DNA from: an uncultured Candidatus Saccharibacteria bacterium
GTDB lineage: Bacteria > Patescibacteriota > Doudnabacteria > UBA920
Length of the DNA stretch: 64,000 nt
Direction of reading: 5' to 3'
NCBI GenBank assembly: GCA_964532425.1
Contig: CAZHIA010000002.1
Location: 169,798 to 233,797 of the forward strand
Position numbers and translations under genes: made by a program. A model generated the notes under the pieces. The model saw only the letters and a program-made list of their open reading frames with translations. It was not told where the DNA came from and did not search any database. Below are positions 36,072-61,893 of this stretch, piece after piece. Within the stretch, counting starts at the first letter, position 1, and the number at the start of each line of letters is the position of its first letter.

Positions 36072-36079
36072 ATTTATGT

Positions 36080-36110: not shown

Positions 36111-36134
36111 TGAGCAAAGAGGCGACTCTCAAAT

Positions 36135-37700: not shown

Positions 37701-37704
37701 TTCC

Positions 37705-46682: not shown

Positions 46683-46757
46683 GGCCCATTCGTCTAGTGG
46701 CTAGGACATCTGGTTTTCAGCCAGGTAACGGGGGTTCGATTCCCCCATGGGCTACCA
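46683..46757 (+). tRNA. tRNA-Glu (anticodon UUC), 75 nt with an encoded CCA
   Basis: Manual fold: 7-bp acceptor stem (G1-U72 wobble), D-stem GTCT/GGAC, anticodon stem TCTGG/CCAGG with loop TTTTCAG (anticodon TTC), T-arm GGGGG-TTCGATT-CCCCC, discriminator A, CCA. Confidence 0.85.
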
Positions 46758-48258
46758 TCGATTTTTTACCACCCGAAAGGGTGGTTTTCGATTGGAAGAT
46801 ATGCGAGATTTTTGGGGTTGTAAATGTTAAATAGTTGTATACCGGCTTTTCCGGAAAGATCAAACCCATAAGCTTTGTCTTTTGCCAAAAGGTTGCCTGT
46901 CTCCAGTAGTTCGGCAGTTGCTCAATAAAGTTAAATACGAAAGTTACCGCTTCATCGATATCGAATTCTTCCAGGCGAGTTTCCCGGAGTTGGCTCTCCT
47001 TGTCGGCGATCTTCATTTTGACCGCTTCGAATTCGGTTTTAAAATCTTCGTCCGAGATGAGTCCGGTTTTTACCAGGCTAAATACTTTGGCCTTTTCTAA
47101 TTTAAGCTCATCGATCTCAGTTCGCAAAGTTGCGTAATGCTGGTTAAGGTCCGAATACTTGCCTTGCCATACATCCAAAATAACTTCTTTAAATGCGTTC
47201 AAGAGATCTTTCTTTGGGGTGATGTCCTCTAAAAATTTAGCGAACTCCTCTTCCAGTTTGGCTTTGGGTACAGACTTTTTGTAAGCGCATTGTTTGTAAT
47301 AGCAGCGGTAATACGGATAGCGAACACCTAACTTACCCACGCTGTACATAGCCGTTAAAGGTCTTCCGCAATAACTGCAAATAATCATATTCCTTAAAGG
47401 GAATTCCGCGTCATGCCGGGCATTGGCAATATATTGGCCTTTGGTGTAATGTCTTAATAACTTTTGGTTTTTGTAAAAAGTTTCCTCGCTGATCAAGGCT
47501 TCATGGGTTCCCCGGAATTCCTTACCGGCGTATTCAATTACGCCCATGTAGAATTTGCTGGACAGGAACTTATGCATGAGCTGGGCCGTAATTTCGCCGC
47601 CTAATGGGGTTTTTAAGCCGCGCGCGGTAACTTGTTTCCTTAACTCTTCTTCCGTCCAAATGCCGGTGGAAAATTCGTTTAAAAGATATTTAACCAACTC
47701 GGACCGCTCCGGATCTAAAATGATGGTCTTTTCTCCGTTTGGTTTTGTAAAATTCAAATAGCCCAATGTAACCCGATGCGGAAAGCGGCCGGATTCGGCG
47801 CATCTGATCATGCCTTCCTTTACGCGCTCGCTTTTAATGTCGTTATCGAATTGGGCAATGCTGGCCATCATGTTGCCCATAAGTCTTCCGGATGAAGTTT
47901 CGTCTACCGGCTCGGTAGCAGATAATATTTGCACATCCAAACCTTTGAAAAAAGACTTAATTTGATAGTAGTCTTCCGCGTTACGGGTTAAGCGGTCAAT
48001 TTTGTAAACCACTATGCAATTTATATTGTTCTTTTTACTAGCGCAAAATTTAAGCATATCCTGCAAGCCCGGACGGTCCGTAGTTTTGGCCGATTCACCT
48101 GCATCGGAAAAATATTTAACAATTTTAAAATTATTACTCTCCGCGAATTTCCTACAAACTTCTTTTTGGTTGTTTAAACTAAATCCGCGTTCGGCCTGGT
48201 CCGAAGTGGAAACGCGATAATAAATTACAGCTTTTTTATTGCCAATATTTTTTATCAT
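46717..48258 (-). CDS. large serine recombinase (resolvase catalytic domain, recombinase domain and zinc ribbon)
   Basis: 'AVIYYRVSTSDQ', 'IDRLTRN' and 'CSYCGRPL...YYRCYYKQC' are present. Start set to the internal ATG (aa 16 of the ORF). The 3' 41 nt overlap the tRNA on the opposite strand. Confidence 0.85.
   Translation of the reverse strand: MIKNIGNKKAVIYYRVSTSDQAERGFSLNNQKEVCRKFAESNNFKIVKYFSDAGESAKTTDRPGLQDMLKFCASKKNNINCIVVYKIDRLTRNAEDYYQIKSFFKGLDVQILSATEPVDETSSGRLMGNMMASIAQFDNDIKSERVKEGMIRCAESGRFPHRVTLGYLNFTKPNGEKTIILDPERSELVKYLLNEFSTGIWTEEELRKQVTARGLKTPLGGEITAQLMHKFLSSKFYMGVIEYAGKEFRGTHEALISEETFYKNQKLLRHYTKGQYIANARHDAEFPLRNMIICSYCGRPLTAMYSVGKLGVRYPYYRCYYKQCAYKKSVPKAKLEEEFAKFLEDITPKKDLLNAFKEVILDVWQGKYSDLNQHYATLRTEIDELKLEKAKVFSLVKTGLISDEDFKTEFEAVKMKIADKESQLRETRLEEFDIDEAVTFVFNFIEQLPNYWRQATFWQKTKLMGLIFPEKPVYNYLTFTTPKISHIFQSKTTLSGGKKSMVAHGGIEPPLPG
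46733..46757. repeat. attL core: 25-bp direct repeat (3' end of tRNA-Glu)
   Basis: ggttcgattcccccatgggctacca, identical to 60362-60386. Confidence 0.8.
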
Positions 48259-48411
48259 AATTGCATAGTTAAATGCTAAAGGGGCGGCCCCTGATTCACC
48301 CAACTCAACTGTTCCAAAAGGAATAGCTTTGCTGGCAAGGACCGCCCCTAAAGGCAGTAAAGCAAATAAAAACCTTTCGGAACTATTTAATTGAGTGGGT
48401 GAATATTCATA

Positions 48412-48606
48412 TTATACCTCAACCCACCTGACTTCGACAAGTACCTCTACCCATCTTTTTTCGTCATCCAGCCTTTTCTTCTTCCAAAAGTCAAAAGCCA
48501 TATCAGCAATCTGATACATTTGCATCCGGATTAATTCGGTTTCTTCATCGGAAAGCTCCGATCCGGCATGGCCTAATAATTTTTTGAATTTTGTTAAAGT
48601 TATCAT
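48412..48606 (-). CDS. small hypothetical protein
   Basis: 64-aa product; its start abuts the upstream gene's stop codon. Confidence 0.4.
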   Translation of the reverse strand: MITLTKFKKLLGHAGSELSDEETELIRMQMYQIADMAFDFWKKKRLDDEKRWVEVLVEVRWVEV

Positions 48607-48607
48607 T

Positions 48608-49177
48608 CTAAAATCCGATCCTCGATAATTGTTCGAATAAATTATCCAGTTTTATTTGCTTCTTCGTAGGCTTTCCCCGGTAATGAGTTTTAGTTATTTT
48701 TTCAGATAACTTGCTTATTTTTTGGTCCAGTTCAAAACCTTTCAGAATGTGAGGTCCCCGGAATTTTTTGCTTAAGTTCTTTGAGGCATAAACCAGCCGC
48801 TGGCAATGCCTACAGCAGAAATAGGCACCGTTTTTTGCTTTGTAGAGTACTCCCACGCGCTTGCCACAGGCTATAACCGGGCATAAAAACCACCAGCGGA
48901 ATCCTCCGTAAAAACATTTTGACCGGGCAAGTGATATGTTATAATCAATCCGTTTTTTACCCTCCTCGGGGTATATGTCATAAACGATCCGGAGATGGGG
49001 CTTTTGTTGATTTTCAAAGCTTGTCTGGATCGCAGCCATAAATTCATCGGCAGACAGCCACTCGGTCCAGGTAATAACTCCAGCCTTCTCCTCCTTCAAA
49101 TATTTATGCTGGCCCAGCCACCAAATTGAAATTTTGAAAGTTTCAAAATTTGAGAGAGAAGAAGAGGAAGACCCCAT
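48608..49177 (-). CDS. hypothetical zinc-ribbon protein
   Basis: 'CPVIACGKR...CCRHCQRL'. Confidence 0.45.
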   Translation of the reverse strand: MGSSSSSLSNFETFKISIWWLGQHKYLKEEKAGVITWTEWLSADEFMAAIQTSFENQQKPHLRIVYDIYPEEGKKRIDYNISLARSKCFYGGFRWWFLCPVIACGKRVGVLYKAKNGAYFCCRHCQRLVYASKNLSKKFRGPHILKGFELDQKISKLSEKITKTHYRGKPTKKQIKLDNLFEQLSRIGF

Positions 49178-49298
49178 ATTTTACCCATTTGTGGTTCCAA
49201 AAAACCGAAATCATTAGAGATCACAACGGCGAAAAAGGTTTATTGAATAAATTTACTCATTTTTTGCCTTTAACACAGTGTCAGATTTGCTTTATTGA

Positions 49299-51488
49299 TT
49301 AACTCGATAACTCCCTTATATTTTTACATTTCTCGCTCATTATCCAGCTAAATTCATCGGTTAAGCTGATAAATTTTTCGGGTTCTCCCACGCTGCCAAG
49401 ACCGTTTGCCGATAGATTACAAACCTTAAGAATTTTAAGTGCTTCCATTTCTTTGAGTGCTGTGGGCCGGGAACAGTTCAAAGCCTCCATAACTTCCTTT
49501 GTTGCCATTATTCCCTTAATATCTAGCAATGCTCGAAATAGCTTGGCTCTCGTTGTTGGCGCGCTATCGATTGAAATTTCAATGACTAACTTTAAATCAA
49601 AATTATTAATCTGTCGCCTGCCGCAAACTAACGCATGACCCCGGGCCAAGTTGTAGAATAACTGGTTAATTCGGTCCGGTTTTTCTATTACTGGCTGAGT
49701 GTACTCATATTCATTTCCGTCCACAGATTTATCTTTCCATACATTAATCACGCCGCGAAGCTTTGCTAAAAGTTGCGCGCATCGGGATATCATAACTACA
49801 GTCTCCCGATCGTCCTTAGATTTTTCCCATATCACGCCCTCAGGATTTTTAAACCATAAAGTTTGAAGAAAATCTTTTGTAATTTCTCTGCACTGTTTTT
49901 CTTTTTGTTTGTACGACTGATCAATTAACTGTTCGGCCAATTCGGTTTCACTTTTCTCTTTGGACAACATTTTTAAGAAAAACAGCCTGGACCCTAAATT
50001 GCCCATCATTTTCCATACACGCGGCGGTATAGGAGTAGAAGCGGCCAAAAGCATAAAAAGGTATTCGCCGACATATTGTCTTTGCCCATGAACTCCGCTA
50101 TCCGTATTCAACCCTTCCCCGTCCAATACGCGCGTTAAGATGCCTAATGACTCGTTTAAGTCATCATCCCTTTTCGAGAATAAGGTTGCTAAATCTCGGA
50201 TCATAAACATTTTATATTTTAAACGCGGCAATAAATCGATGTCCTTTAATTCCTCTTTGGAGACATTAGCTGAGTTGGACACAAACGAAGCCGGAGTAAA
50301 TTTGTCCGTGGCGTAAGTCAATCCTTCAATTTCAGAGAAGAAGTTTATTGCGATGGTTTTTCCGGATGAAGGCACGTCCACAAAAACTAAAGCAAACGGA
50401 TTTGTAACATCAGTTATTAAAATTTGGGCCATAATGGATAAACCGACTTCAGCTGGAAATTTTAATTCTGGAAAATTTTTTATCACCACACTCTTCCAAT
50501 CCGGAAAGGCTACTTCCCGGTCAATTTTATCGATTTTTTTAATACGTGGTAGTTCTTCCAAATTTAAGATTTCCTTAGCGTATTTGCTGGTTAAGTCTTC
50601 AATGTTTCCATCCAGCTTAATTAAAAAATCCGTTATATCGCCGCCTGTTCCGACTTCTTTAGGCAAAATAACTTTGTACAAGCTTTTATGCCCGGCTTCT
50701 TTAAATTTGTATATAAGTCTTTCGGCTCCTTCTCTTCCTGCTTTGTCATTATCAAAACAAACATAAATTGACTTTACGTTCAAAAGATTTTTTACCCAGT
50801 CATCCTTAAATGTTCCGGCCCCATGAGTGGATGTAACAGCACTGATGCCCCGGCCCACAAGTGCTAAACGATCTAATTCGCCCTCACAGATAATAATTTT
50901 TTCCGTACTGAATGGCACTGTTTCCCAATCGTATAACTGAGCTTCCCCGGAAGGGTAAGTCACTTTTTCTTTGCCTTCTTTTGGGTTTCTTCTTAGTTTA
51001 AAATATGCATAATCCCCACTTTGGTCTTTAATTGGTATAGTTATCCAAGTCTTGCCATAAAAATTGCCAAACCCTAATTTATATTGCTTGATGACAATAT
51101 CTGAAATTCCCCGGTCGTTTAGATAACGCCTAATATCATCTGGTATATTAGCGTGGCAACTTTCAACTAGCGCATTATCAAAATTTACATTATCGCTTTC
51201 ATTGTATTTTTGTTTTTTCGAACTTGGCTCTTTCCAATTTAAAGCAATATCTTTCAGTTCATCGCCCCAAAATTCGCGCAATGTATGAATGTTCCCCTGA
51301 GTACCGCATTTTTTACAATCGTACTGGCCTGTTTTTTCGTCAAAATATAAGTGTGCTTCTTTACCGGAACTGTCTTCATCACAACCACTAAACAAACAAT
51401 GAGTTACAAGTTCACCATTTGCGCGCTGGTATTTTACCCCTTTTCTGTCTAAATATTCCTTTATTGTTATGGTTTCAAAATTTTGCAT
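49299..51488 (-). CDS. DnaG-like primase (CHC2 zinc finger plus TOPRIM) fused to a P-loop NTPase region; island replication protein
   Basis: Zinc finger 'HCLFSGC...DCKKCG', TOPRIM 'IIICEGELD' and 'CFDNDKAGREGAERL', and Walker A 'DVPSSGKT' are present. Confidence 0.75.
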   Translation of the reverse strand: MQNFETITIKEYLDRKGVKYQRANGELVTHCLFSGCDEDSSGKEAHLYFDEKTGQYDCKKCGTQGNIHTLREFWGDELKDIALNWKEPSSKKQKYNESDNVNFDNALVESCHANIPDDIRRYLNDRGISDIVIKQYKLGFGNFYGKTWITIPIKDQSGDYAYFKLRRNPKEGKEKVTYPSGEAQLYDWETVPFSTEKIIICEGELDRLALVGRGISAVTSTHGAGTFKDDWVKNLLNVKSIYVCFDNDKAGREGAERLIYKFKEAGHKSLYKVILPKEVGTGGDITDFLIKLDGNIEDLTSKYAKEILNLEELPRIKKIDKIDREVAFPDWKSVVIKNFPELKFPAEVGLSIMAQILITDVTNPFALVFVDVPSSGKTIAINFFSEIEGLTYATDKFTPASFVSNSANVSKEELKDIDLLPRLKYKMFMIRDLATLFSKRDDDLNESLGILTRVLDGEGLNTDSGVHGQRQYVGEYLFMLLAASTPIPPRVWKMMGNLGSRLFFLKMLSKEKSETELAEQLIDQSYKQKEKQCREITKDFLQTLWFKNPEGVIWEKSKDDRETVVMISRCAQLLAKLRGVINVWKDKSVDGNEYEYTQPVIEKPDRINQLFYNLARGHALVCGRRQINNFDLKLVIEISIDSAPTTRAKLFRALLDIKGIMATKEVMEALNCSRPTALKEMEALKILKVCNLSANGLGSVGEPEKFISLTDEFSWIMSEKCKNIRELSS

Positions 51489-51515
51489 AAATTTTTATTT
51501 CGTAGAGGCTCGGGC

Positions 51516-51761
51516 TTAAAGCATGTTCGCTATAGCCTGAGTTAATTCTTTTAAGCCTTTTTCATACTGGCCGGGATGCAGGGCGAATATTCCGGAGTGG
51601 AATTTTGCTATTGCACTTATTAATTTATAGCTATAGGAAAAATTAAATATCACTTTATATTCCTTGCTATAAATATCAATTACGCGAATTGGAAACAAAG
51701 TACTAAGTTTTACTGCTAACTGAAGATCGCTAATTGGATATAGATTCCCTTGTTTAGGCAT
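51516..51761 (-). CDS. small hypothetical protein
   Basis: 81-aa ORF, AT-rich. Confidence 0.35.
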   Translation of the reverse strand: MPKQGNLYPISDLQLAVKLSTLFPIRVIDIYSKEYKVIFNFSYSYKLISAIAKFHSGIFALHPGQYEKGLKELTQAIANML

Positions 51762-51974
51762 AAATTTATTTTTAATTATTAAAACCTACTTTACCCCGGG
51801 CTGGAAGGTATGGAACCAGCCAAGGATATAGTAGGCTTTGCATACCTTTTGCTATTTACACAATGAACTATAGCAAAGGTAAAAATGAGCAAAATTAATT
51901 ATCACAATTTTTTGGCAACCTCTGTGGATATAACAAAAAAAGCCTGTTTTTACAGGCCAATTTGTTGTACCTAT

Positions 51975-52961
51975 TTATTTTTTTGATAAATTTGCCTCCT
52001 TTTTACGAAAACTATTCCAGCAACTTTCGGAACAAAACTGCCGTGGCACCCCATTCAAAGCATGGATGTTATCCAATGAAGAGTGCTTACCACAACACTC
52101 ACACTTATTTTTTGTCACCGCGATAACAGAAGGGATTTCAAACGTCTGATTTTCCTTACGTCTTTCCAAATAACATTTTCTATTTTCTGTTTGGTTACAG
52201 AAACTTTCCTTTTTTATCCTTTTTAAACTTTTACCACATCTGCCACATATAGTGGTATATTTATTTTTGCACTCGCTTCTTAATAGCTCCAAATCTGAAA
52301 TAATATCATCGTACCCAAAGGAGTCAACTACTAAAGGGAAGTACTTAGAAATGCACTGCTCGAGAAATTGAACAGCCTCAATTTTATCTTTTGGGATTTT
52401 TTTGGTATGGATGTTTATGATTTCCAAAATTTCATCAAAAGCAACATTAGGTAAATTTAAAATTTGTTTTCTTGTAAGATTATATTTTTGGATAAAATCT
52501 CTTATCTGTTTATTTTGAAAATCCTTATATTTTGGTAAAAATATTTTTTCAAATTTGTTATTTAAAGACAACCCCCTGTCACTTAGAGAGCGTAAGCGTT
52601 TCAATGCCCGATATGTAAATAATTTTTTATACTTATCTGAGTGCGAATTTTCAAAAGTTGCAAGAGATTCCTCATCTGCTGTCCTGATACATTCTTCAAT
52701 TTCATTTGTTCCAAAAATAGCACGTTGGCTATCCTGCCTCATAAAATCAATCGGATCAACACCTTCAAATATTTGATCATCAAATTCACTTTCGGCTTGT
52801 TTAAATACAGCTAAAAGAATAGTGCTAACGCTTGCTCCAATTTCTAATAAATAAAGCAAATCTTTATGTACCAACTGGTCTTCGTATTGCTGCAATAAAG
52901 ACTGATAAACCCGGGAAAACCGCTGGTAGGTTTTTTGGTAAATGTGTAATGAATTTTCCAT
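51975..52961 (-). CDS. hypothetical protein with a C-terminal Cys-cluster
   Basis: 'CGRCGKSL...CECCGKHS...CSESC'. Confidence 0.5.
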   Translation of the reverse strand: MENSLHIYQKTYQRFSRVYQSLLQQYEDQLVHKDLLYLLEIGASVSTILLAVFKQAESEFDDQIFEGVDPIDFMRQDSQRAIFGTNEIEECIRTADEESLATFENSHSDKYKKLFTYRALKRLRSLSDRGLSLNNKFEKIFLPKYKDFQNKQIRDFIQKYNLTRKQILNLPNVAFDEILEIINIHTKKIPKDKIEAVQFLEQCISKYFPLVVDSFGYDDIISDLELLRSECKNKYTTICGRCGKSLKRIKKESFCNQTENRKCYLERRKENQTFEIPSVIAVTKNKCECCGKHSSLDNIHALNGVPRQFCSESCWNSFRKKEANLSKK

Positions 52962-53256
52962 ACCTTTTTCTTTATTTTACTCCCTATTTCCAGTTTGGGA
53001 AATTTGCTGTAAAATATAGGTACAATTGAATAGAGTAGCCTAAACCTTGCAGTAATGCAGGGCATGGCGAAAAAATCCGGATAAGAACAGAGACGGTCAT
53101 CGTCTTGCTTTACTTATCCGGTTATCATCCGAAAGGGTGGTAGGCCTATCCCGAAAGGGAAAAGCCATTGCAAGCGGTGGCCCTTTTTGTTATCCGTATA
53201 AAATTAATAATCGAAGTTTATTTTAGAGAAGCAAAAATAATTTTATTTAAAAAGGT

Positions 53257-53775
53257 ATGAAAAGAGAATTGTGGAATTCAATTTTAAACTCATTGCCAGA
53301 TACGAGAGCCTCAATCATTGCACCAGAAGATGTTGAGGAAGCAGCGGATATGCTAGATGCAGACAATATAAATCATCAAAAATTCTTGTCTAATATGGAA
53401 GCGTTTTTTGCAGGGCCAAATTTTAAAACGCGCGCAATTTTACGGGGACAAAATATTGAAGAAGACATGACATCCTCGATGAAATTTTTTGCCGGAAGAA
53501 TTGACAAAAAAGCTCCAGCAATCCCCATATGGTTTTACAGCGCTTACCCTGATGTAATGAACTGGTTTACCGAAAAACAAAAACAGCTAATTTCTTCCCG
53601 GGATACTGATTTCATAACGGCCGAAAATTCCAAATTATATGGTATAAATATTTCTGATCCATTATTAAACATACAGAATATTACAAACAGTAAGGGCGAA
53701 ACCAAACCAAAGTATTTAAAAAATTTGGTACACAATTTTAAGATTACGTTTGGTCAAAAACTTGAAGCACAGTAA
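53257..53775 (+). CDS. hypothetical protein
   Basis: 172-aa product; first of a plus-strand run of genes. Confidence 0.45.
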   Translation: MKRELWNSILNSLPDTRASIIAPEDVEEAADMLDADNINHQKFLSNMEAFFAGPNFKTRAILRGQNIEEDMTSSMKFFAGRIDKKAPAIPIWFYSAYPDVMNWFTEKQKQLISSRDTDFITAENSKLYGINISDPLLNIQNITNSKGETKPKYLKNLVHNFKITFGQKLEAQ

Positions 53776-53789
53776 TTTTGCTTTTAAAT

Positions 53790-54104
53790 ATGGCAAGGAA
53801 AAATTATTATCCCATATTCCAGATAATCTCAATCATTTTGCTATTGCTGGCCATCCCTTCTGTCTGGCCTTACGGTGTTTATCAATTTGTAAAAATTGTT
53901 GTATTCTTAACGTGCATTTACAATATTTATATTTTGAAAGAGAAGGACCAGATTTGGACAATTTTGTTTATAGTATTAGCTCTCCTATTTAATCCCGTCG
54001 TTCCGATATATTTGTCTAAAAACTTATGGCAAATAATTGACGGCATTTCGGCAATAATCATTTTTACAAATTACGCTAAATTTAAAAAAATTATTAATCC
54101 TTAA
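53790..54104 (+). CDS. small membrane protein
   Basis: Three transmembrane helices. Start at the ATG (aa 5 of the ORF). Confidence 0.4.
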   Translation: MARKNYYPIFQIISIILLLLAIPSVWPYGVYQFVKIVVFLTCIYNIYILKEKDQIWTILFIVLALLFNPVVPIYLSKNLWQIIDGISAIIIFTNYAKFKKIINP

Positions 54105-54109
54105 AACAC

Positions 54110-54385
54110 ATGGGCGAGCACTGGCAAAAATTGCTTTTCAAAAACTTAAAACGTGAACCTAATTCTAAACCCCTGGTTTTTGAAATTTTATTTTTGCTTG
54201 GGGAAGAAAAACCTTCGGACCCGGTACAATATATCAAGGACTGGCTTTTAAGCCATCCAGCCGAAACAGAACGATTAAAAGACCAGGAATTGCTTAACAG
54301 GGAAGCTGAATTTATATATAAGCTTTCTACCGGCGAAATTCCTTTCCCGGAATATTGCACACGAGTATATAAAAAGATTGATTAA
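54110..54385 (+). CDS. small hypothetical protein
   Basis: 91-aa product. Confidence 0.4.
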   Translation: MGEHWQKLLFKNLKREPNSKPLVFEILFLLGEEKPSDPVQYIKDWLLSHPAETERLKDQELLNREAEFIYKLSTGEIPFPEYCTRVYKKID

Positions 54386-54456
54386 ATTTAACTCGCTAAA
54401 TATGCTATAATTTAAGCATAAATTAGCGAGTTTTTAATTTTAGTGTTGTCAAAAAA

Positions 54457-56730
54457 ATGACAAATTACGATTTCAAAAATTTATCTCCTCTGGACTTCGA
54501 GGTCCTAGTTAAAGACCTGCTGGAGGCGAAGTTAAAAATTAATTTAGAAAATTTTATTGCCGGTCCGGACGGAGGCGTTGATTTAAGGTATTGCTACGAC
54601 TCGAAAAATGAATTAGTGATCCAATGCAAAAATTATTTTGATTTCAACCAATTACTAAGAGTTTTAAAAAAGGAAGTTAAAAAAGTAAGAGAACTAAAAC
54701 CTAAGAGATATATTGTAGCCACCTCTGTCGGGCTGACTAGGCTACGAAAGGCCAAAATTCATGAGCTGTTTAAGCCGTTCATGCGTAAGCCATCTGACGT
54801 TTACGGGGCAAGCGATCTGAATTCCATAATATCTAAAAATAAGGATATTGAGCGGTCCCACTTTAAGCTCTGGCTATCCAGTACCAATATTCTAAATACC
54901 ATTGTTCACAGTAAAGTCGTCAACCAGAGCCGTTTCGAGATGGATAGGATAAAGGACGCTGTAAAAGTTTATGTCCCAAATGAAAGTTTTAATGAAGCTC
55001 TTAATATCTTGCAGCAAAGACATGCTGTAGTAATTTGCGGCATCCCCGGTATCGGCAAATCCACATTAAGCCGTATACTGGCTTACCATTATTTAGCCAA
55101 TGGTTTTGACGAGTTTATTTATATTTCAAATTCCATTTCAGAAGCCTATGAGCTTTACGAGGATGGGAAAAAACAGGTATTTTTCTTTGACGATTTTTTA
55201 GGGAAACGGCTTTTGGAAGAAAATCTGGAAACAAACGAAGATCAAAATATCTTACGTTTTATGGAAAAGGTCGCGGATTCAGAGGATAAAATTTTGATTC
55301 TGGCCACAAGGGAGTATATCTTAAACCAAGCAAAGGAAAAATTTGAAAATTTAAACCAACACCGGGTGCAGTTATCGAAGTGCATTTTAGATCTGAAAAA
55401 ATACACAAATTTTGTACGCGCAAAAATTCTATACAACCATTTGTTTTTTTCTAAACTGCCGGAAAAATACATTGAAAATTTAGTATACCATAAAAATTTT
55501 CTCGATATAATCAAACACAGAAATTATAATCCCCGGATAGTTCACACGATCACGCAAGATCAAGATGTTTGGAAAAATATCTCACCTGAAAATTTTTACG
55601 ACAAATTTATAGAATATCTTGATAAGCCATTCAGTATATGGGAACATGTATTTTCGCATCAAATCTCGCCACTTTCCCAGGCCCTTCTTCTTATCCTGGC
55701 CCAAACAGACACCCCAATATTGAAAGATGATCTCGCGGATGCGGTTTCCGCGTTCGGAGCTAAGTTTGGCAATAAGTATGGTTTTAAGTTTAATGAGCGG
55801 GATTTTGAACATGCCCTAAGAGAATGCGAGAACACGTTTATAACCATAGACAAGGACCCAAATAACCACCTGTATATAGATTTCCAAAATCCTTCAATTC
55901 AGGATTTTTTGATTTTGTATATTAGCCAGGACGAAAAACTTACATTTGACCTGATTACGGCCGCCCATTTTTTTAACCAAGCAATTAACATGCTTTCGAA
56001 GCCGATCAATAAATCATCCACGATTGAACCGGCACAACTCAAACGTGAAGTTAAGCAAAAAGTAATGGAAAATTTTGCTATACTTCGAAGTTCTGGACTT
56101 ACTAAAACCACTATGGCGGGTAAAGCTGATGACTGGTGGTGGTCAAAAGCCAATGACACCGAACTATCCAGGCTAAACATACTGTTCAATAAATTTGGGC
56201 AGGATCAGGACGTGAGGCAACTTATTAAAGAACGAATTATTGCGATGGATGAAAAGAAGTTTAACAACGCTGATGTGCCGTACTATGTCAACCTTCTTGC
56301 TGGCCTGGGCAAATCCATAGGCAAGGATCCTGCCGAACTAATTAAAAACCTGTCCTCCAGCATTTACTTTACCGACGGCATCGATCAGCTTGAGAGGCTT
56401 TCTAAAGTCTACCCTAAGGAATACCGTGCTTTTATCAAGGGCACTGAATTTTCAAATTTAGTAGACTATACCATAGATAATGAAATGGAAAATACTGACG
56501 ACGATGGTTTAGAAGAATTAAGAGACAACGTACAATCTTTGCAAAGAAGGTTTAACCTGGACCTATCGGAAAAACTCGACACTATCCAGGAGATGTTAGG
56601 AGATGCCCGGTCCCGACACTATGCTGAGATGGACCCCGACGATTACCGGGTTAATTACGATGACCACCGAGAAATTTCTGACGGCGAATTAAGGGCCATG
56701 TTCGACACCCTTCGAACCGGCCAAAAATAA
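54457..56730 (+). CDS. Mrr-like restriction-endonuclease (PD-(D/E)xK) domain fused to a STAND-type P-loop NTPase and helical C-terminal region (Avs-like antiviral ATPase candidate)
   Basis: N-terminus 'LSPLDFEVLVKDLL...GPDGGVDL...VIQCKNY' (Mrr_cat-like). Walker A 'VICGIPGIGKSTL'. Walker B 'VFFFDDFLG'. 'ILILATRE' sensor-1-like motif. About 350 aa of helical C-terminus. Confidence 0.7.
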   Translation: MTNYDFKNLSPLDFEVLVKDLLEAKLKINLENFIAGPDGGVDLRYCYDSKNELVIQCKNYFDFNQLLRVLKKEVKKVRELKPKRYIVATSVGLTRLRKAKIHELFKPFMRKPSDVYGASDLNSIISKNKDIERSHFKLWLSSTNILNTIVHSKVVNQSRFEMDRIKDAVKVYVPNESFNEALNILQQRHAVVICGIPGIGKSTLSRILAYHYLANGFDEFIYISNSISEAYELYEDGKKQVFFFDDFLGKRLLEENLETNEDQNILRFMEKVADSEDKILILATREYILNQAKEKFENLNQHRVQLSKCILDLKKYTNFVRAKILYNHLFFSKLPEKYIENLVYHKNFLDIIKHRNYNPRIVHTITQDQDVWKNISPENFYDKFIEYLDKPFSIWEHVFSHQISPLSQALLLILAQTDTPILKDDLADAVSAFGAKFGNKYGFKFNERDFEHALRECENTFITIDKDPNNHLYIDFQNPSIQDFLILYISQDEKLTFDLITAAHFFNQAINMLSKPINKSSTIEPAQLKREVKQKVMENFAILRSSGLTKTTMAGKADDWWWSKANDTELSRLNILFNKFGQDQDVRQLIKERIIAMDEKKFNNADVPYYVNLLAGLGKSIGKDPAELIKNLSSSIYFTDGIDQLERLSKVYPKEYRAFIKGTEFSNLVDYTIDNEMENTDDDGLEELRDNVQSLQRRFNLDLSEKLDTIQEMLGDARSRHYAEMDPDDYRVNYDDHREISDGELRAMFDTLRTGQK

Positions 56731-56743
56731 TCTTATTTAGCAT

Positions 56744-57301
56744 ATGGAAAACGAGGTCAAACAAATAGTCGAAAAATCTATCCTGGAGATAATTGAGGAA
56801 TTTAATAGTAATCCGGACGTGTTTCTTACGGAAGAAGATGTAAGGTGCCATCTAGTCGCTAAACTTTTACAGAATAAACAGCTATCGACTCTGGCCGATA
56901 CCGCAGACGGCTCAAAATCCATTCCGATTCATACCGAAGTACGGTGGTACGGGGCAAGCGGAAAATTACGTTACAGATCCGATATTGTTCTGCTTAAAAC
57001 AAATTCTTTAAAAACAAAAAGATCCTTCCACTTGCCCACCAAAGGATATTCGTTTGATGAATTCTACTCGATTATAGAAGTTAAATTGCGCCGCATACGT
57101 CCGAGGAGCGACAAAAAATATTTAACTCTCATTAAAGAAGATTTTGAACGTTTACAAGCTTTGATAGAAGATACACCTGGAGTAAACGCAACTTTTCATT
57201 TGATCTGCTTTGATAAAAAATCTGATCTTTCTCCTAACCTGGACCGGTATTATCATGATCCCAAAATAAAATTCCAGTATATTTTTAAAGATTGTCGCTA
57301 A
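56744..57301 (+). CDS. small PD-(D/E)xK-like nuclease-fold protein (tentative)
   Basis: 'RSDIVLL' ... 'IIEVKL' give a D...E-x-K spacing. The gene lies 13 nt after the NTPase gene. Confidence 0.4.
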   Translation: MENEVKQIVEKSILEIIEEFNSNPDVFLTEEDVRCHLVAKLLQNKQLSTLADTADGSKSIPIHTEVRWYGASGKLRYRSDIVLLKTNSLKTKRSFHLPTKGYSFDEFYSIIEVKLRRIRPRSDKKYLTLIKEDFERLQALIEDTPGVNATFHLICFDKKSDLSPNLDRYYHDPKIKFQYIFKDCR

Positions 57302-57311
57302 AAATACGGGT

Positions 57312-58265
57312 ATGAACTTTCTAAGAAAAATATTTGCCAAGAAAAACCTTATTTCCAGGAGCACAACTCCAACAAATGAACTAAGCACCCACGTTGCAAT
57401 TCCAGAACCTACTAAATCTTTACTTTGGATAACGAACGAAAACGCTTCTAAAATCAGATCAGCCGGATCAATCCGAATCACTATCACTCTATCTGATACA
57501 GGGGTAAAAACTACTCAGGGAGACCCCGATGACAGTAATAATTTTTTCTCTGAGCCGAGCCTTATTTGGACCAAGTTGCCGGTTTTGCCGAACTCCAGCC
57601 TGGAAACAAAACCGATGTATTACCCTTCCTACTCCGGCCTTTCCCCGGCTCACCGGTACCAATACTTAAAATGGCTGGCCAATGTTGAACAGCCGACAAA
57701 TTTAAGTTACGTATTCCTTTATTACTATGGTTTAGAAAGACACCTACTTATCGGAAACTACGATGGCGCAGTAGATGAAATATTACGCCTGATAAAATTC
57801 CACGATCGGGGAACTTTTAAAAGCTACGCAACGACGGCTCTATTAGTAGCTAGCCTTGAGCGAAAAAGACCGGATATTTTTCAAAAGGCTCCTTTTTTAT
57901 TGGAACAACTTACCAATGAAGGCATACTGCTTAGATTCCTAACAGGTAATAGCCTTACAGCAAAAGAGGTGATGAGCTTAGCCTCGCAAGTTGGCTTTAA
58001 AAATAAACGCTACATTAAATTGCGCCCGGTAGATTTTGAGGAAGAACTACAAAATAGAATTGACCGCTCTGAAATTTCAATAAAAAATACCATAACTTTA
58101 TATTCTTTAAAAACGGAAAACTCTACAGCTTTTGCTAACCTCTCTATACCCGATCACATCAGGACAATAAAAATACCTCAAATCTTATACGATGAAAGAT
58201 TTAAGGCAAATCTCCTGGCTCTTTTAGAACAAACACACGAAGCCATCAAAAATAGGCCACGTTGA
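57312..58265 (+). CDS. hypothetical protein with a TerB-N-like motif (tentative)
   Basis: 'YYPSYSGLSPAHRYQYLKWL...YVFLYYYGLERHLL'. The gene lies 10 nt after the preceding gene. Confidence 0.4.
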   Translation: MNFLRKIFAKKNLISRSTTPTNELSTHVAIPEPTKSLLWITNENASKIRSAGSIRITITLSDTGVKTTQGDPDDSNNFFSEPSLIWTKLPVLPNSSLETKPMYYPSYSGLSPAHRYQYLKWLANVEQPTNLSYVFLYYYGLERHLLIGNYDGAVDEILRLIKFHDRGTFKSYATTALLVASLERKRPDIFQKAPFLLEQLTNEGILLRFLTGNSLTAKEVMSLASQVGFKNKRYIKLRPVDFEEELQNRIDRSEISIKNTITLYSLKTENSTAFANLSIPDHIRTIKIPQILYDERFKANLLALLEQTHEAIKNRPR

Positions 58266-58532
58266 ATAATTAATGCTTATTTTCCTATAAGCGTACAGAA
58301 TATCATCCTGTGTTTGCCTGTTTTAATACCAAACAAGGTATAGTAAGTAATATCTACTTCGCTAACAGTAAATGATTCAACCTTAGGCGTTAAAATCAAC
58401 GAGGCCGGAAATTTCGGCATGTCCTGAGAAGCTATGGCCGTACAAGAATTGGATCCAAGATCGGGATTTTTAATCACTATTTTTGGAATGAAAATACCGA
58501 CTAATAGAACAAGTAACGCAATAACAATCCAC

Positions 58533-59357
58533 CTACTCATACAAGCTCCTGGTATCATTAAAACCCATAATGTCTCCGGCCGGTGATATAACCACCTGTA
58601 CGAACGGAGCCATATCCTCGCCTTGCGGCTTGTTTTTTAAAACCCATTGGAAGGCGGCTTGCTTGCCGTCTTTGGATGTTTCCGTATAAGTAAAATCAGA
58701 ACTGTTTTTAATTTGCTCGAAATCGGAGACATGTTTGGCTAAAAACTGGTAGCCAATTTGTTTGAGTCGAGTTTGAGTAAGTTCCGGCTTTACGCGGTAC
58801 GCGTCTGCTGAACCCTGGGCCGGAGCGAACTGAACAACTTTGTTTGAAGCCGGATCAACTGAATATTCCATGCCTTTATCGTCCCGGTAAACGTCCACAT
58901 TTTTACCGTTGCTCGAATATAAATTATCCCGAATGTCCCAAAGCGTAATTTGCAAAGACTGGTCTTCCCGGATGTCTTTAATATTTGCCGTTGCCGTAGC
59001 GATGGCTTGCGGATCTTTGTTTTGAATCTGGAGCCGCTTAACCGTATCCTGCAAGTTGGCCCTCTGTTGATTATATCTTAAGTCGTAATGTTCGCACTGG
59101 ACCGTATCATCCGGAGTATCGGTTAAACAGCCGTGCCGGTAGCGATAATTGATTAAGGAATTAAGGTCCGATTGGATAGCCTGGATATCTTTGTTGGTTT
59201 TTAGCCAGACCGGAATCATGCCGTCTACTTCCTGTTTTTCTGAAACTTCAGCGACAAGCGTTTTATTATTTAGTTTTAGCTGTCGGTATATGCCAAAACC
59301 TATTAGGGCAAGAACGACTACCCCACATCCAATGTATAAATATTTTTTTCTGGTCAT
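58533..59357 (-). CDS. membrane-anchored hypothetical protein
   Basis: Start at the ATG (aa 15 of the ORF), which overlaps the upstream gene's stop (ATGA). A transmembrane helix follows. Confidence 0.45.
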   Translation of the reverse strand: MTRKKYLYIGCGVVVLALIGFGIYRQLKLNNKTLVAEVSEKQEVDGMIPVWLKTNKDIQAIQSDLNSLINYRYRHGCLTDTPDDTVQCEHYDLRYNQQRANLQDTVKRLQIQNKDPQAIATATANIKDIREDQSLQITLWDIRDNLYSSNGKNVDVYRDDKGMEYSVDPASNKVVQFAPAQGSADAYRVKPELTQTRLKQIGYQFLAKHVSDFEQIKNSSDFTYTETSKDGKQAAFQWVLKNKPQGEDMAPFVQVVISPAGDIMGFNDTRSLYE

Positions 59358-59635
59358 AAAAATATTCCCATAAGGATCAAAGCCAAAATCGGACCCCAAA
59401 CTAACGCGTAGATATTCCTAATTTGATCAAAATTAAGAGGCACCTTCATCATCTGGTACCTTGGCGATTCCAATGTTAAAAATTTTTGTTTAACTTTGAT
59501 AACCCGATATGAGTCTAGCGGAAATACCGGCAAAAAAAGCAGTATTATCCACTTAGTAGCAATATATGAACCGTCGGCAGGATTAATCTCTCGCTTGCCA
59601 TAGAGCGTTGTCCCAAAACCATTGAAAGATAACAT
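59354..59635 (-). CDS. small membrane protein
   Basis: 93-aa product with two transmembrane helices. Confidence 0.4.
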   Translation of the reverse strand: MLSFNGFGTTLYGKREINPADGSYIATKWIILLFLPVFPLDSYRVIKVKQKFLTLESPRYQMMKVPLNFDQIRNIYALVWGPILALILMGIFL

Positions 59636-60040
59636 AGTCGTATAATTAAGTACGCTTTAAGTATATCCCTTTAGCGAATTAAAATAAATAGCTCTTAACT
59701 ACAGCCAAAATACGATACTACGATGATTACGATATTTTATTTAAAATATCAGAAAGCCAAATTTTGAAGTTTCCTAAATTTTTGTGCGAATAATTTTGGG
59801 GCCCCCTGGGGCGAATTTTCTATAAACGGTCGTCTTGCCCTATGCCCCGGCACCGGGGGTCGATAAAGCAAAACTGACACTGTGATAGAGGGTTGTAACA
59901 AAAAAAGACCGCAAGGGCCTTTTTGAGCGTTAAGGGCTAGGATTGAGTAGCGAGTAAAGGAATTAAGGCCCGAAATTGCTTTATTTCCTCTACCAAAAAA
60001 TGTAAGTTCTGAAAACTGAAGGCTACCATAAACAAAAATG

Positions 60041-60074
60041 CCTCACCCTTGTGGTGGGGCTTTTTTGTTTATCG
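60041..60074 (+). terminator. rho-independent terminator-like hairpin
   Basis: gcctcacc(cttgt)ggtggggc followed by tttttt. Confidence 0.45.
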
Positions 60075-60361
60075 ATGTTCATCGATGGGGAATCGAACGG
60101 GCAGCAGTGAGCTAGTGGAGGCCAGCAGGCCGACACGTAGCGAACGCCGAAGAAGTGCTACGGATAGCACTTCTTTGCTGCCCCGGACAACGAAGCCCGC
60201 CTGGGGCGGGCGAGGCGGAATTCCCCCATGGGCAAGGGGATACAGCCGAGCGATCTAGGAACTGCCACCGGCAGTTTATCGCAATCCATGGACAAGTGAG
60301 TCCGCCAGCTGGCGGACGAGCGCGACAATTCCCCCATGAATCATCGAATGTAGCCGTAGGC
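60075..60361. repeat. GC-rich hairpin-dense block with nested degenerate copies of the tRNA 3' end (island right-arm/attR region)
   Basis: Partial copies 'attcccccatgggc' near 60222 and 'attcccccatg' near 60327 precede the full repeat. Four consecutive inverted repeats are present, including the 16-bp palindrome tccgccagctggcgga. Confidence 0.5.
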
Positions 60362-60386
60362 GGTTCGATTCCCCCATGGGCTACCA
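60362..60386. repeat. attR core: 25-bp direct repeat
   Basis: Identical to 46733-46757. It has no 5' acceptor-strand partner, so it is a 3' fragment only. Confidence 0.8.
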
Positions 60387-60551
60387 CTAACAACCTCATT
60401 CCCCAGAATGGGGTTTTTAGTTTGGTTTTATTGATGCGAAATGAATTTTCCAAAATTTAGGTGTGATTGATATATTTTTGAAATATACTTATAGTTAAGG
60501 TAAATTAGTTTTCAATCCCAGTTTGGTACCCAAAAGCTAAAATAAATTGTT

Positions 60552-61283
60552 ATGGAAAATAATGAATTTGGAACTTTAATGCAGCGTCTTAAAGACATGC
60601 ATAATCGGTATTATAAAACTATACATGCTTTTTATGCCTATGAAGCTCTTCGTGAAGTTATAGCCCCAAATATTGTTGGTGAACACATGGCTCATGGAAA
60701 TGTAGAGGTATTTAATAAGTATAAAAACTTTTTTCTCCCAGCCAAAGAATCTTTAAAAGTATATTTTTTCTTAGAGCTCGCAAAATTATTTGATGCCTCT
60801 AAACAATCCTTGCACATTAATAAAATTATTAATTTTACTGAAAGTAACATTGAAAATTTAACTGTTGATGCATTCCAAGAATATAATCAGGACCGAGAAC
60901 TTGTTACTCAATTGATCAAAGAGTACAAAGGCATGTCGCATAAAGATCTTACAGAAATCAGAAACTCCCTCACTAAGCATCAGGTGGTCCTGGAAAAGTT
61001 GGAAGACTATAGAAACAAATGGCTTGTGCATGATGATTTAAATAAACCCGAGATACCTTCTATAACAGGAGAGGAAATAAAAAGCTTACTTGAAATAATA
61101 GAAAAAATTCTGAATTCTTTCACGGGTAAATTAAATAGTGAAAGTTGGTTATATAGTTATGCGGAAGACGAGACTAAATCTGACGTTCGTTTGGTTATTG
61201 ATCACCTGCGGAGATTTGAACCCTATAGAATAAAAGAGATTGAAGATGAGTATAAAGAGAATTTAAAAAAATTTTCCGTTTAG
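60552..61283 (+). CDS. hypothetical protein (possible HEPN-like R-x5-H motif)
   Basis: 243-aa AT-rich product containing 'RNKWLVH'. Confidence 0.4.
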   Translation: MENNEFGTLMQRLKDMHNRYYKTIHAFYAYEALREVIAPNIVGEHMAHGNVEVFNKYKNFFLPAKESLKVYFFLELAKLFDASKQSLHINKIINFTESNIENLTVDAFQEYNQDRELVTQLIKEYKGMSHKDLTEIRNSLTKHQVVLEKLEDYRNKWLVHDDLNKPEIPSITGEEIKSLLEIIEKILNSFTGKLNSESWLYSYAEDETKSDVRLVIDHLRRFEPYRIKEIEDEYKENLKKFSV

Positions 61284-61437
61284 CCATTCTTTATCAAAAA
61301 TAAGTAAACTTCCCTCACCAAAGCCAAATAAGTTTTCCAGCCGTTCAGACGGTATCTACCACAAAAAACTCGAACATAATTCGAGTTTTTGTTTGCTAAT
61401 ATAATTTTATTATTAGTAAAGGTATTTTTACAGCTAA

Positions 61438-61893
61438 TTGAATATATGGCATAATTATAATATGCAAAACAATAGGGAAACCCATATTTTACCTGAAAAC
61501 GAAATAGTGAACGCAATAGCGCAAAATGCTCAGTGGGAATTGAATTCTCGTGGAAATGATGTCATAACTCTAAGTTATGGAAGGAAAGATTTAATGATTG
61601 TTGCCAGTAAACGTGATAATTCGGTTATTACCAGAGTTGAAAATATGAGGGAGTCTGGCCAAGAAGAAAATGAAACCACCTTGTTATATACTGCAGCTAA
61701 AAAAATAATGGGGCAGCTTGCTCAAAAATACAAAAGCGATTTAAAGTATACTATAAGTACTTCGGATGAAAGTATGAATGCTTGGGCACAAAGTAAAGGT
61801 GTTAACATTTTTAATTTACAACCGGCTTCTGATATCCGTGATGATTTTGATCATCATTATCGAGCAACTATAGCATATAAACCAGAGGAATAG
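61438..61893 (+). CDS. hypothetical protein
   Basis: 151-aa AT-rich product. Confidence 0.4.
   Translation: MNIWHNYNMQNNRETHILPENEIVNAIAQNAQWELNSRGNDVITLSYGRKDLMIVASKRDNSVITRVENMRESGQEENETTLLYTAAKKIMGQLAQKYKSDLKYTISTSDESMNAWAQSKGVNIFNLQPASDIRDDFDHHYRATIAYKPEE

Follow-up and report, generated by a model that had tools for sequence, protein, structure and literature searches.

Large serine recombinases (LSRs, or serine integrases) of phages and islands, such as those of phiC31, Bxb1, A118/LI and SPbeta (SprA), combine a resolvase catalytic domain, a recombinase domain and a zinc ribbon with an inserted coiled-coil, and they act at short att sites, recombining attP and attB of about 40-50 bp with a 2-bp crossover, in a direction set by an RDF. 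RDFs bind DBD2 and the CC hinge, Int-RDF C-terminal fusions are functional, and the extreme C-terminus of SprA affects directionality (PMC11722253 and its ref. 49; PMC5737554). In other systems the attachment site itself lies within a gene. In the mycobacteriophages BPs, Brujita and Charlie, attP lies inside the repressor gene, and integration by a tyrosine recombinase removes a C-terminal degradation tag, such that the integration state is read out at the protein level; papers on this integration-dependent immunity include PMC4557955 and PMC3694055. In SSV-type archaeal elements attP lies inside int, a tyrosine recombinase gene that is cut into two large parts, and thereby inactivated, on integration into a tRNA gene; the topic is reviewed in PMC8371274. 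Tycheposons of Prochlorococcus are tRNA-targeted islands carrying a site-specific integrase, replication genes (primase/helicase) and variable cargo, of which most use tyrosine recombinases and a minority large serine recombinases (Hackl et al., bioRxiv 10.1101/2020.12.28.424599).

Here we describe a 13-kb island, of inferred mobility, in a candidate-phyla-radiation (CPR) bacterium, which sits at the very end of a tRNA gene and whose LSR gene is arranged such that insertion of the island would swap the enzyme's own C-terminal tail. Scores of relatives share this design, and we found no description of it in the literature searched. The window, which is the whole stretch of DNA analysed, comprises 64,000 nt (positions 169,798 to 233,797 of contig CAZHIA010000002.1, assembly GCA_964532425.1).

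The tRNA-Glu island and its features

The observation in the initial annotation is confirmed: a tRNA-Glu(UUC), an exact 25-bp repeat of its 3' end, an AT-rich block and an LSR gene whose last 41 nt run antisense over the tRNA are all present. ARAGORN finds a single tRNA, and the 25-mer GGTTCGATTCCCCCATGGGCTACCA occurs exactly twice, at 46733-46757 and 60362-60386, with no further copies at up to 3 mismatches and 0 expected in shuffled sequence. The GC content is 33-43% between 47 and 60 kb, compared with 44-46% just upstream and 47-58% further upstream. However, two details of that description are inaccurate. The last ~340 bp before the second copy (60040-60386), described as AT-rich, are GC-rich (about 60-64%), and the right flank from 60387 to about 62400, described as GC-rich, is also AT-rich (32-41%). 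The features are as follows.

46683-46757 (+), tRNA-Glu(UUC), the target gene (attB left arm; Rfam tRNA 60.1 bits), of which the last 8 nt now belong to the attL core
46750-46758, attL core GGCTACCAT, the proposed crossover region at the extreme 3' end of the tRNA
46717-48258 (-), LSR gene, integrated isoform of 513 aa from ATG, ending ...SMVAHGGIEPPLPG*; the stop codon TGA is the complement of tRNA nt 35-37 (anticodon nt 35-36 plus A37)
46768-46785 (+), terminator-like hairpin for the regenerated tRNA, embedded antisense in the LSR coding sequence (encodes ..TLSGGKK..)
48412-48606 (-), 64-aa ORF directly upstream of the LSR, an inferred candidate directionality factor or regulator
49299-51488 (-), primase (Toprim) of 729 aa, the replication module (Pfam Toprim_2 4.8e-12; phrog_47 DNA primase 6.3e-25)
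53037-53166 (+), LOOT RNA (Rfam RF03000) in the divergent intergenic region
54457-56730 (+), Mrr-type nuclease fused to an nSTAND3 NTPase, defence-type cargo (Pfam nSTAND3 4.3e-51 and Mrr_cat 1.7e-6; PADLOC candidate system PDC-S73, 1.1e-160)
57312-58265 (+), TerB_N-domain protein (SngA-like), cargo (Pfam TerB_N 4.6e-16; PADLOC SngA 4.6e-14)
59937-60020 (-), "ext", an orphan coding segment for the alternative LSR C-terminus FSFQNLHFLVEEIKQFRALIPLLATQS*, joined in frame to the LSR only in the reconstructed excised circle
60021-60029, attR core GGCTACCAT, the proposed true right end of the LSR island
60040-60060 (+), terminator hairpin that would directly follow the tRNA in the empty site
60082-60243 (+), T-module A, a GC-rich structured element that is not part of the LSR island
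60251-60352 (+), degenerate second T-module, ending AATTCCCCCATGA
60362-60386 (+), the second copy of the 25-mer, followed by its own terminator at 60392-60415
60552-61283 (+), HEPN AbiU2-like gene (Pfam HEPN_AbiU2 8.3e-15) in a further AT-rich stretch (to about 62400), outside all tRNA-derived repeats; no further core copies were found

The recombinase matches Pfam Resolvase (PF00239, 3.6e-36, residues 25-173 of the 528-aa ORF), Recombinase (PF07508, 8.7e-11) and Zn_ribbon_recom (PF13408, 2.7e-8), as well as phrog_95 integrase (1.9e-92). The motif YYRVSTSDQ is present, and S17, R15, R62, R89, R92 and D96 are invariant in 36-61 homologs. In the AF2 model, coiled-coil helices 350-397 and 403-426 follow the Cys-rich ribbon. 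The protein thus has the domains and catalytic motifs of an LSR. The 64-aa ORF upstream is conserved in that position in 27 of 79 related loci (tblastn), but has no Pfam, NCBIfam or PHROGs hit. The LOOT RNA scores 72.7 bits against a gathering score of 46.4, and recurs in related islands, namely in L001, L002, L009, L012, L059 and L030 by covariance model and in L054, L045, L031, L017 and L035 by nhmmer (L numbers denote related loci).

A split recombinase ORF conserved across related loci

The overlap between the LSR gene and the tRNA is a family trait. In 64 of 79 species-representative loci, almost all Patescibacteria, the LSR ORF ends inside an antisense tRNA: 49 of these are tRNA-Glu, mostly with a 39-41-nt overlap and TGA at tRNA nt 35-37, and 15 are Ala, Lys, Arg or Val, with overlaps of 39-69 nt. 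Of the 120 best homologs, 99 match a tRNA-antisense tail motif (GIEP/RIEL-type), seven more have such a tail by eye, and three have the alternative ext tail.

Joining the LSR at the 9-bp core GGCTACCAT (46750-46758) to its exact copy at 60021-60029 gives a 530-aa ORF ending ...MVAFSFQNLHFLVEEIKQFRALIPLLATQS*. An HMM of the ext peptide has a single hit in the window (E 1.5e-8), and finds orphan copies on the LSR strand at the far end of islands in at least 22 loci at E<0.01, as well as fused LSR-ext ORFs in L010, L048, L020, L005 and L013. Homologous tails are also present in homologs P0041, P0089 and P0105. Each orphan is preceded by a terminator and a short copy of the tRNA 3' end, and the layout of ext, short core and terminator is seen in about 30 related loci. 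In relatives the cores are 5-11 bp long and start 0-2 nt from the tRNA 3' end, and the reconstructed ORFs are in frame. The ext block has a dN/dS of about 0.28 over 102 pairs, indicating purifying selection. Contig L010, which carries a fused LSR-ext ORF, has a 126-nt terminal overlap and is therefore probably circular, a likely free circle. The AF2 model of the 530-aa form has a pLDDT of 85, with a coiled-coil, and ext is predicted as a helix at 509-528; however, ext is placed with a pLDDT below 50, and docking on the zinc-ribbon/coiled-coil region is not supported by the model.

Presence/absence of the island was also examined, as the initial annotation had suggested. There were no matches to this tRNA in JGI metagenomes, and Logan contigs of the same sample (SRR11567520) show only the occupied state. 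The species of the window is not among the representative genomes, where the best LSR match is 65%. No empty site, attP junction or presence/absence polymorphism was thus found for this species, and mobility is inferred.

T-modules and the 25-bp repeat

The second copy of the 25-mer lies 340 bp outside the proposed island, behind a stack of GC-rich structured elements that we term T-modules. The 5' end of T-module A, GGGGAATCGAAC, is the reverse complement of the tRNA T-loop and T-stem, and its 3' end, ATTCCCCCATGGGC, copies the tRNA 3' part. It scores 112.9 bits with our covariance model R1 and has a fold z-score of -5.9, whereas the degenerate second module scores 7.4 bits (E 0.028 with filters off). 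The model found 44 copies with strong covariation, about 50 nt downstream of many tRNA genes and usually with no LSR nearby. The T-modules are a separate class that is absent from Rfam: no Rfam 15 covariance model matches them at E<=1 in the window, and only sub-threshold noise was obtained on T-units of L061. Based on the T-unit architecture in 16 loci, the 25-mer is probably the original tRNA 3' end, displaced by earlier T-type insertions.

Interpretation and comparison with described systems

We consider it likely, at a probability of roughly 0.8, that 46759-60020 (13.26 kb) is an integrated member of a family of tRNA-targeting genomic islands common in Patescibacteria, to which the host also belongs, and that the island is inserted by an LSR whose attP lies inside the last ~30 codons of its own gene. 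In this view the crossover falls in the last nucleotides of the tRNA gene (core GGCTACCAT; in relatives the shared core reduces to CTAC). In the excised circle the LSR ORF would run across the core into the other end of the island, giving the 530-aa protein with a conserved, probably helical C-terminal peptide, whereas after integration the same ORF runs into the antisense tRNA, giving the 513-aa protein whose last 11 residues (HGGIEPPLPG-type) are dictated by the tRNA. The island would restore the 3' end of the tRNA and supply its terminator from within the LSR coding sequence, and the 25-bp repeat would play no part in this mechanism.

What could the tail swap mean for the recombinase? The split-ORF architecture and its conservation across the family rest directly on our analysis, but that the two isoforms differ in activity or stability, and that integration state thereby feeds back on the recombinase, is inferred. 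The likeliest effect would be on directionality or on the ability to re-excise, because the extreme C-terminus of LSRs lies next to the zinc-ribbon/coiled-coil hinge where directionality factors act. However, the tRNA-derived tail is conserved only because the tRNA is conserved, and it need not have a function of its own; in addition, many loci hold stacks of orphan ext fragments, which could mean that the elements rarely excise. We currently cannot exclude, although we regard it as a tentative possibility, that the swap is a built-in directionality or commitment switch, in which the circle-encoded 530-aa form integrates and the tRNA-terminated 513-aa form, possibly with the 64-aa partner, has a different reaction preference; the element would then sense its own integration state without a separate sensing system. 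Equally tentative is that the T-modules are a new class of miniature tRNA-targeting mobile elements or tRNA-minihelix-mimicking RNAs, with a 5' end matched by complementarity to the T-arm of the tRNA gene they occupy, which could even reflect nucleic-acid-guided target choice.

The interpretation in the initial annotation is partly supported. An integrated island at the 3' end of tRNA-Glu, an intact LSR with a 3' end translated from the tRNA antisense strand, a primase and defence-type cargo, and an island-supplied terminator all hold. That the element is recently acquired and possibly still mobile is plausible, because both halves of the split ORF are intact, but is not demonstrated, because no empty site or circle junction was found for this species. 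The 25-bp repeat, in contrast, is most likely not the recombination boundary, and a model in which the 25-mers are attL and attR, the LSR excises the whole 46758-60386 segment and strands exchange in the T-arm seems very unlikely. In its favour, the 25-mer is exact and unique, a reconstructed junction shows, by our reading, dyad symmetry around the second copy (TCGAATGTAGCC ... GGCTACCATCGA), and in L059 an LSR island does sit at the core of a T-module, such that T-module cores can serve as targets. However, a circle closed at the 25-mer gives a 591-aa ORF with 78 unconserved, GC-rich read-through codons, whereas closing at the 9-bp core gives the family-conserved tail; long repeats at island ends are rare in relatives, and 60030-60386 consists of T-modules, which occur at many tRNAs without any LSR. 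The T-arm, whose stem the initial annotation had put forward as an inverted repeat of the kind serine integrases recognise, is probably not where strands exchange, and would lie in the left half-site. It is similarly improbable that the modules are accessory sites or an RNA cofactor of this LSR and so belong to the element. They lie directly outside ext in the window, L032, L051, L059, L061 and L171, and their 5' complementarity to the T-arm is guide-like, but only 7 of the 79 LSR loci contain a strong module match (E below 1e-6), all 27 module loci from metagenomes lack an LSR within reach, modules follow nine or more different tRNA types, and they have their own direct repeats starting in the T-loop, unlike the LSR core.

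A further alternative, possible but doubtful, retains the architecture and treats the tail swap as a loss, in which the integrated 513-aa protein is crippled, as in SSV-type "suicidal" integration, integration is effectively one-way, and the island is a stranded, decaying passenger. Stacks of two or three orphan ext fragments and decayed modules at single tRNAs (L053, L061, L032, L059, L044, L045 and L062) suggest in-situ decay rather than excision, and the tRNA-coded tail differs with tRNA type, so no particular integrated tail is selected. On the other hand, the integrated ORFs are full-length and intact in 64 of 79 species, the small ORF that accompanies the LSR in 27 loci could be an excision factor, and the probably circular L010 and the attP-like fused ORFs show that joined forms exist. 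The initial annotation called the layout typical of P4-like and PICI-like phage satellites, but a satellite of this type, dependent on a helper phage for packaging, is very unlikely. The integrase-primase-cargo layout with a defence gene would fit, but the only recombinase is of the serine and not the tyrosine type, and no capsid, terminase, packaging or capsid-redirection gene (sid/psu/delta, terS, cpm/ppi) was found in Pfam or PHROGs among 19 island and flank ORFs, although distant, unrecognisable homologs cannot be excluded. Close relatives of this LSR are also nearly absent from 2.9 million viral contigs: among the 80 loci kept, only one exceeds 40% identity (46%), and four more are 29-38% identical over most of its length.

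Compared with the LSRs of phages and islands, the protein has the same three domains, but attP lies inside the recombinase's own 3' coding region, giving two integration-state-specific C-termini, the target is the terminal nucleotides of a tRNA gene, and the family is concentrated in Patescibacteria. The T-module, as a covarying multi-helix structure of about 170 nt whose closing helix uses a copy of the tRNA T-stem and acceptor 3' strand, resembles a tRNA minihelix and can be compared with structured RNAs near mobile elements and tRNAs (LOOT, the tmRNA tRNA-like domain, viral tRNA-like structures); however, ARAGORN calls no tmRNA, and the module behaves as an insertion flanked by direct repeats of the tRNA 3' part. 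Tycheposons share the tRNA target, integrase, replication genes and variable cargo, but occur in a different host phylum, and no recombinase ORF running into the tRNA is reported in the parts of that study consulted. As in integration-dependent immunity, an attP within an ORF gives the integrated and excised forms different C-termini, but here the split gene is the serine recombinase itself rather than the repressor, and the removed tail is a conserved, predicted helix rather than a degradation tag. As in SSV-type elements, the recombinase gene spans attP and the target is a tRNA gene, but here only the last ~27 codons are exchanged, and the ORF stays complete with a tRNA-supplied stop codon.

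Antisense tRNA tails across the recombinase family
The observation put forward in the initial annotation, an AT-rich island at a tRNA-Glu gene with a serine recombinase whose 3' end overlaps the tRNA, holds, whereas the interpretation attached to it is only partly supported, as neither the island boundary nor the satellite analogy that it proposed stands up. ARAGORN finds a single tRNA in the window, the last 25 nt of which recur exactly once; no further copies appear with up to three mismatches, and none are expected by chance. The GC content is 33-43% from 47 to 60 kb, 44-46% immediately upstream and 47-58% further upstream. The claim that everything between the two repeat copies is AT-rich and both flanks are GC-rich needs two exceptions, however, as the last ~340 bp before the second copy are GC-rich and the right flank up to about 62400 is also AT-rich. 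GC also dips to 41-44% at 36001-38000 and to about 46-48% at 26001-32000. The features of the locus that are relevant here are as follows.

46683-46757, tRNA-Glu(UUC)
46717-48258, minus strand, gene of a large serine recombinase (LSR)
46750-46758, GGCTACCAT, the tRNA terminus and proposed left core
46759-60020, the island as delimited here
46768-46785, terminator-like hairpin for the regenerated tRNA
48412-48606, minus strand, 64-aa ORF directly upstream of the LSR
53037-53166, plus strand, LOOT RNA (RF03000)
60021-60029, second copy of GGCTACCAT, the proposed right core
60040-60060, terminator
60082-60243, plus strand, intact T-module A (a GC-rich structured element)
60362-60386, second copy of the 25-mer, followed by its own terminator
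60420-62400, further AT-rich stretch (32-41% GC)

The LSR ORF has the three Pfam domains of a large serine recombinase and matches the PHROG integrase phrog_95 at 1.9e-92. It ends ...SMVAHGGIEPPLPG*, and its stop codon is the complement of tRNA positions 35-37, so that 41 nt overlap. The hairpin at 46768-46785 lies within the LSR ORF on the other strand (residues ..TLSGGKK..), and therefore the attP arm, the terminator and the protein linker share the same bases.

This overlap is a family trait. A protein search returned 493 homologs, the best at 65% identity. Of the 120 best, 99 match a motif for tails that are translations of an antisense tRNA T-arm (...LVAPRGIEPLLPG, TGIEPVLPH, RRIELRLPG), seven more have such a tail as judged by eye, and three share a different tail containing (D/E)I(K/R)(K/R)W. 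Fetching relatives from one genome per species gave 79 loci (designated L numbers), nearly all from Patescibacteria, including Saccharibacteria, Doudnabacteria, Paceibacterota, Magasanikbacteria, Falkowbacteria and others; the window's host is also a Patescibacterium, in keeping with the named homologs of a flanking RND permease. In 64 of the 79 loci the LSR ORF ends inside an antisense tRNA gene. In 49 of these it is tRNA-Glu, mostly with a 39-41-nt overlap and TGA at tRNA nt 35-37, and in 15 it is tRNA-Ala, Lys, Arg or Val, with overlaps of 39-69 nt and stops in the D-arm, the acceptor or the anticodon loop. A sub-group of the family that targets these latter tRNAs comprises L003, L014, L024, L028, L029, L033-L041, L047, L048, L065 and L066.

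Island ends and the proposed exchange of the recombinase tail
Where does the island end? If the circle is closed at the 25-mer, as the initial annotation implied, the LSR ORF reads 78 further codons through GC-rich sequence, and this potential coding extension is unconserved. Just left of the GC-rich patch, however, there is the 9-bp copy of the tRNA terminus, GGCTACCAT, and closing the circle there gives a 530-aa ORF ending ...KKSMVAFSFQNLHFLVEEIKQFRALIPLLATQS*. The predicted joints would read ...CTGAAGGCTACCATCGATTTTTTACC... for attP and ...TTCCCCCATGGGCTACCATAAACAAAAATGCC... for attB; inspection of the reconstructed attP and attB for dyad symmetry, by eye only, gave no clear answer. The tail of the 530-aa ORF is homologous to the alternative tails of the homologous proteins P0041, P0089 and P0105 and of the L010 ORF. 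An HMM built from eight such tails finds the window copy (E 1.5e-8, the only hit in the window), as well as orphan copies of the tail ("ext") on the LSR strand at the far end of the islands in at least 22 loci at E<0.01, and LSR ORFs fused to the tail in L010, L048, L020, L005 and L013. Every orphan copy is preceded by a terminator hairpin and a short copy of the tRNA 3' end. Where both ends are in reach, the shared core is 5-11 bp, starts 0-2 nt from the tRNA 3' end, and the reconstructed ORF is in frame; we read CTAC as the common denominator of the tRNA-Glu cores. A search of the relatives for long direct repeats of the tRNA 3' end found repeats of 12 nt or more in only 5 loci (13-22 nt), as the real cores are shorter than this 12-nt threshold. 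The tail block has a dN/dS of about 0.28 over 102 pairs, so it evolves as a peptide. Finally, L010 (contig JBAZKU010000004.1, 11164 bp) carries a fused ORF, and its first 126 nt equal positions 11027-11152, so that it is probably a free circular element of ~11 kb; the same MAG also has an integrated copy (L032).

We conclude that attP lies within the LSR coding sequence, that the island is 46759-60020, and that integration exchanges the last 27 residues for 11 tRNA-encoded ones. The two alternative ORF ends and their recurrence across the family can be read directly from the sequences, whereas any difference in activity between the two protein forms, a role for the 64-aa ORF and the present mobility of the island are inferred. 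Mobility in particular rests on the intactness of both ORF halves and on family evidence: a 34-nt tRNA pattern had 0 hits in JGI metagenomes, exact-protein look-ups of flanking genes returned only occupied or uninformative Logan contigs, and the LSR itself is not on record in the contig index, its cluster having no name or accession, so that neither an empty site nor a circle junction was found for this species in these searches.

What might the exchange of tails do? LSRs integrate by default and need a directionality factor that binds the zinc-ribbon domain and the hinge of the coiled-coil. C-terminal Int-RDF fusions are functional, and the extreme C-terminus of SprA has been implicated in directionality (PMC11722253 and its ref. 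49; PMC5737554). A conserved amphipathic peptide tethered to that end could therefore modulate direction or activity. AF2 gives a confident LSR fold (pLDDT 85, coiled-coil helices 350-397 and 403-426) and predicts the tail as a helix (509-528), but with pLDDT below 50, so that the model does not place it on the rest of the protein. The 64-aa ORF has no family match, is conserved immediately upstream of the LSR in 27 of 79 loci, and is a candidate partner, possibly an excision factor or regulator. Nonetheless, two or three orphan ext fragments are stacked at single tRNAs in the left flanks of L053, L061, L032, L059, L044, L045 and L062, which look like graveyards of decayed islands, or tandem arrays; read as decay in place of many elements, they keep open the alternative that the integrated form is impaired.

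A structured element downstream of tRNA genes
The GC-rich patch in front of the second 25-mer was first considered as a possible tmRNA or tRNA-like gene, but ARAGORN and Rfam give nothing and the 3' CCA does not follow the closing helix. The region 60040-60400 folds far better than shuffles (z -5.9) and has homologs next to tRNA-derived repeats in L059, L061 and L013. Eight copies aligned well, and RNAalifold found compensatory changes in 21 of 31 pairs. A covariance model and a gapped-pattern scan of metagenomes raised the set to 44 copies of this element of about 170 nt, the T-module, including the window copy, L059 2034-2205 and 11473-11644, L061 13529-13699, L055 11426-11602, and loci L160-L186. 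On this set, 93% of cells are paired against 69% in shuffles, 27 of 31 pairs show double changes, and there are 282 double-change cells, against 80 in shuffles and at most 53 in slid controls. No Rfam family matches, and the viral contigs searched contain no T-modules. G.U and A.C cells are equal (27 each), so that this strand test favors neither transcribed strand, nor an action as RNA over one as DNA.

In 22 of the 27 metagenome loci, and in L055 and L061, the module lies 41-55 nt downstream of a called tRNA gene on the same strand; in the other five (L163, L167, L171, L180, L184) no tRNA is called next to the module within the sequence available around it. The tRNAs include Glu, Gly, Lys, Leu, Met, Trp, Ala, Ser and Cys, the modules are often in tandem, and none of the 27 metagenome loci has an LSR within reach. 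The module's 5' end is the exact reverse complement (10-17 nt) of the local T-loop and T-stem 3' strand. Its 3' end is GGCGGA followed by a direct copy of the tRNA from ATTCC to the 3' end or beyond: in 11 of the 16 units examined this copy is an exact repeat of 16-22 nt, two tandem units share 47 nt, and in three units only 6-10 nt remain identical. A new terminator follows. This is the signature of a small insertion that regenerates the tRNA and displaces the old 3' end outward.

In the window the order is tRNA, LSR island, terminator (60040-60060), intact module A (60082-60243, 112.9 bits), degenerate module B (7.4 bits), a 22-nt remnant, and then the 25-mer with its own terminator. The 25-mer is therefore best read as the original tRNA end, with the LSR island arriving later, at the regenerated tRNA terminus. 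In L059 an LSR island sits between two perfect 226-bp copies of such a unit (core, terminator, module, core; 1980-2360 and 11430-11800), and the LSR ORF there reads into the module instead of a tRNA, which shows that module cores can serve as LSR targets. The AT-rich stretch at 60420-62400 lies outside all tRNA-derived repeats and holds a HEPN AbiU2-like gene and two unknown ORFs; it may be an older defense islet, with the GC shift back to host level near 62400.

Cargo, significance and related elements
Besides the LSR and the 64-aa ORF, the island carries the following genes.

a zinc-ribbon-like 189-aa ORF
a Toprim primase
a weak HNH hit
DUF6804
an Mrr-nSTAND3 protein equal to PADLOC candidate PDC-S73 (1.1e-160)
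a TerB_N protein
small membrane-like ORFs

Only the LSR and the 64-aa ORF are widely shared with relatives, so the rest is variable cargo. A LOOT RNA (72.7 bits) lies in the divergent intergenic region and recurs in at least 11 related islands, including L001 5926-6056, L012 5979-6109, L009 645-777, L002 6580-6699, L059 6624-6746 and L030 5367-5492, 4-9 kb from the LSR and on the opposite strand in most of them. This association may give the orphan motif a genomic context.

Serine integrases are major genome-engineering tools, and how they set direction is an active structural question. In the large natural family described here, the extreme C-terminus of the enzyme would be rewritten by the recombination event itself, which offers a ready-made pair of isoforms for asking what that tail does, as well as compact integrases inferred to target tRNA ends. 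The result also corrects how such islands should be delimited, as the longest tRNA-derived repeat is most likely not the att site here, and it shows that islands of one family occupy tRNA genes in many CPR bacteria, a poorly understood group with small genomes; the one examined here carries defense genes. The strongly covarying element that stacks up downstream of tRNA genes is uncatalogued and deserves its own study. Literature searches found no description of an LSR with attP inside its own ORF, of CPR tRNA-targeting LSR islands, or of the T-module, although with incomplete coverage this is absence of evidence only.

How does the element relate to known ones? While tRNA-integrated islands and LSRs as such are established, the arrangement of the recombinase ORF across attP differs from the LSRs that we found described. 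The initial annotation called the layout typical of P4-like and PICI-like phage satellites, but no phage structural or packaging gene was found in the island with PHROGs or Pfam, and viral contigs contain almost no close relatives of the LSR, as only one of the 80 viral-contig loci kept exceeds 40% identity to it. The element does not fit P4 or PICI satellites, and is best compared with tRNA-targeted replicative islands such as tycheposons.
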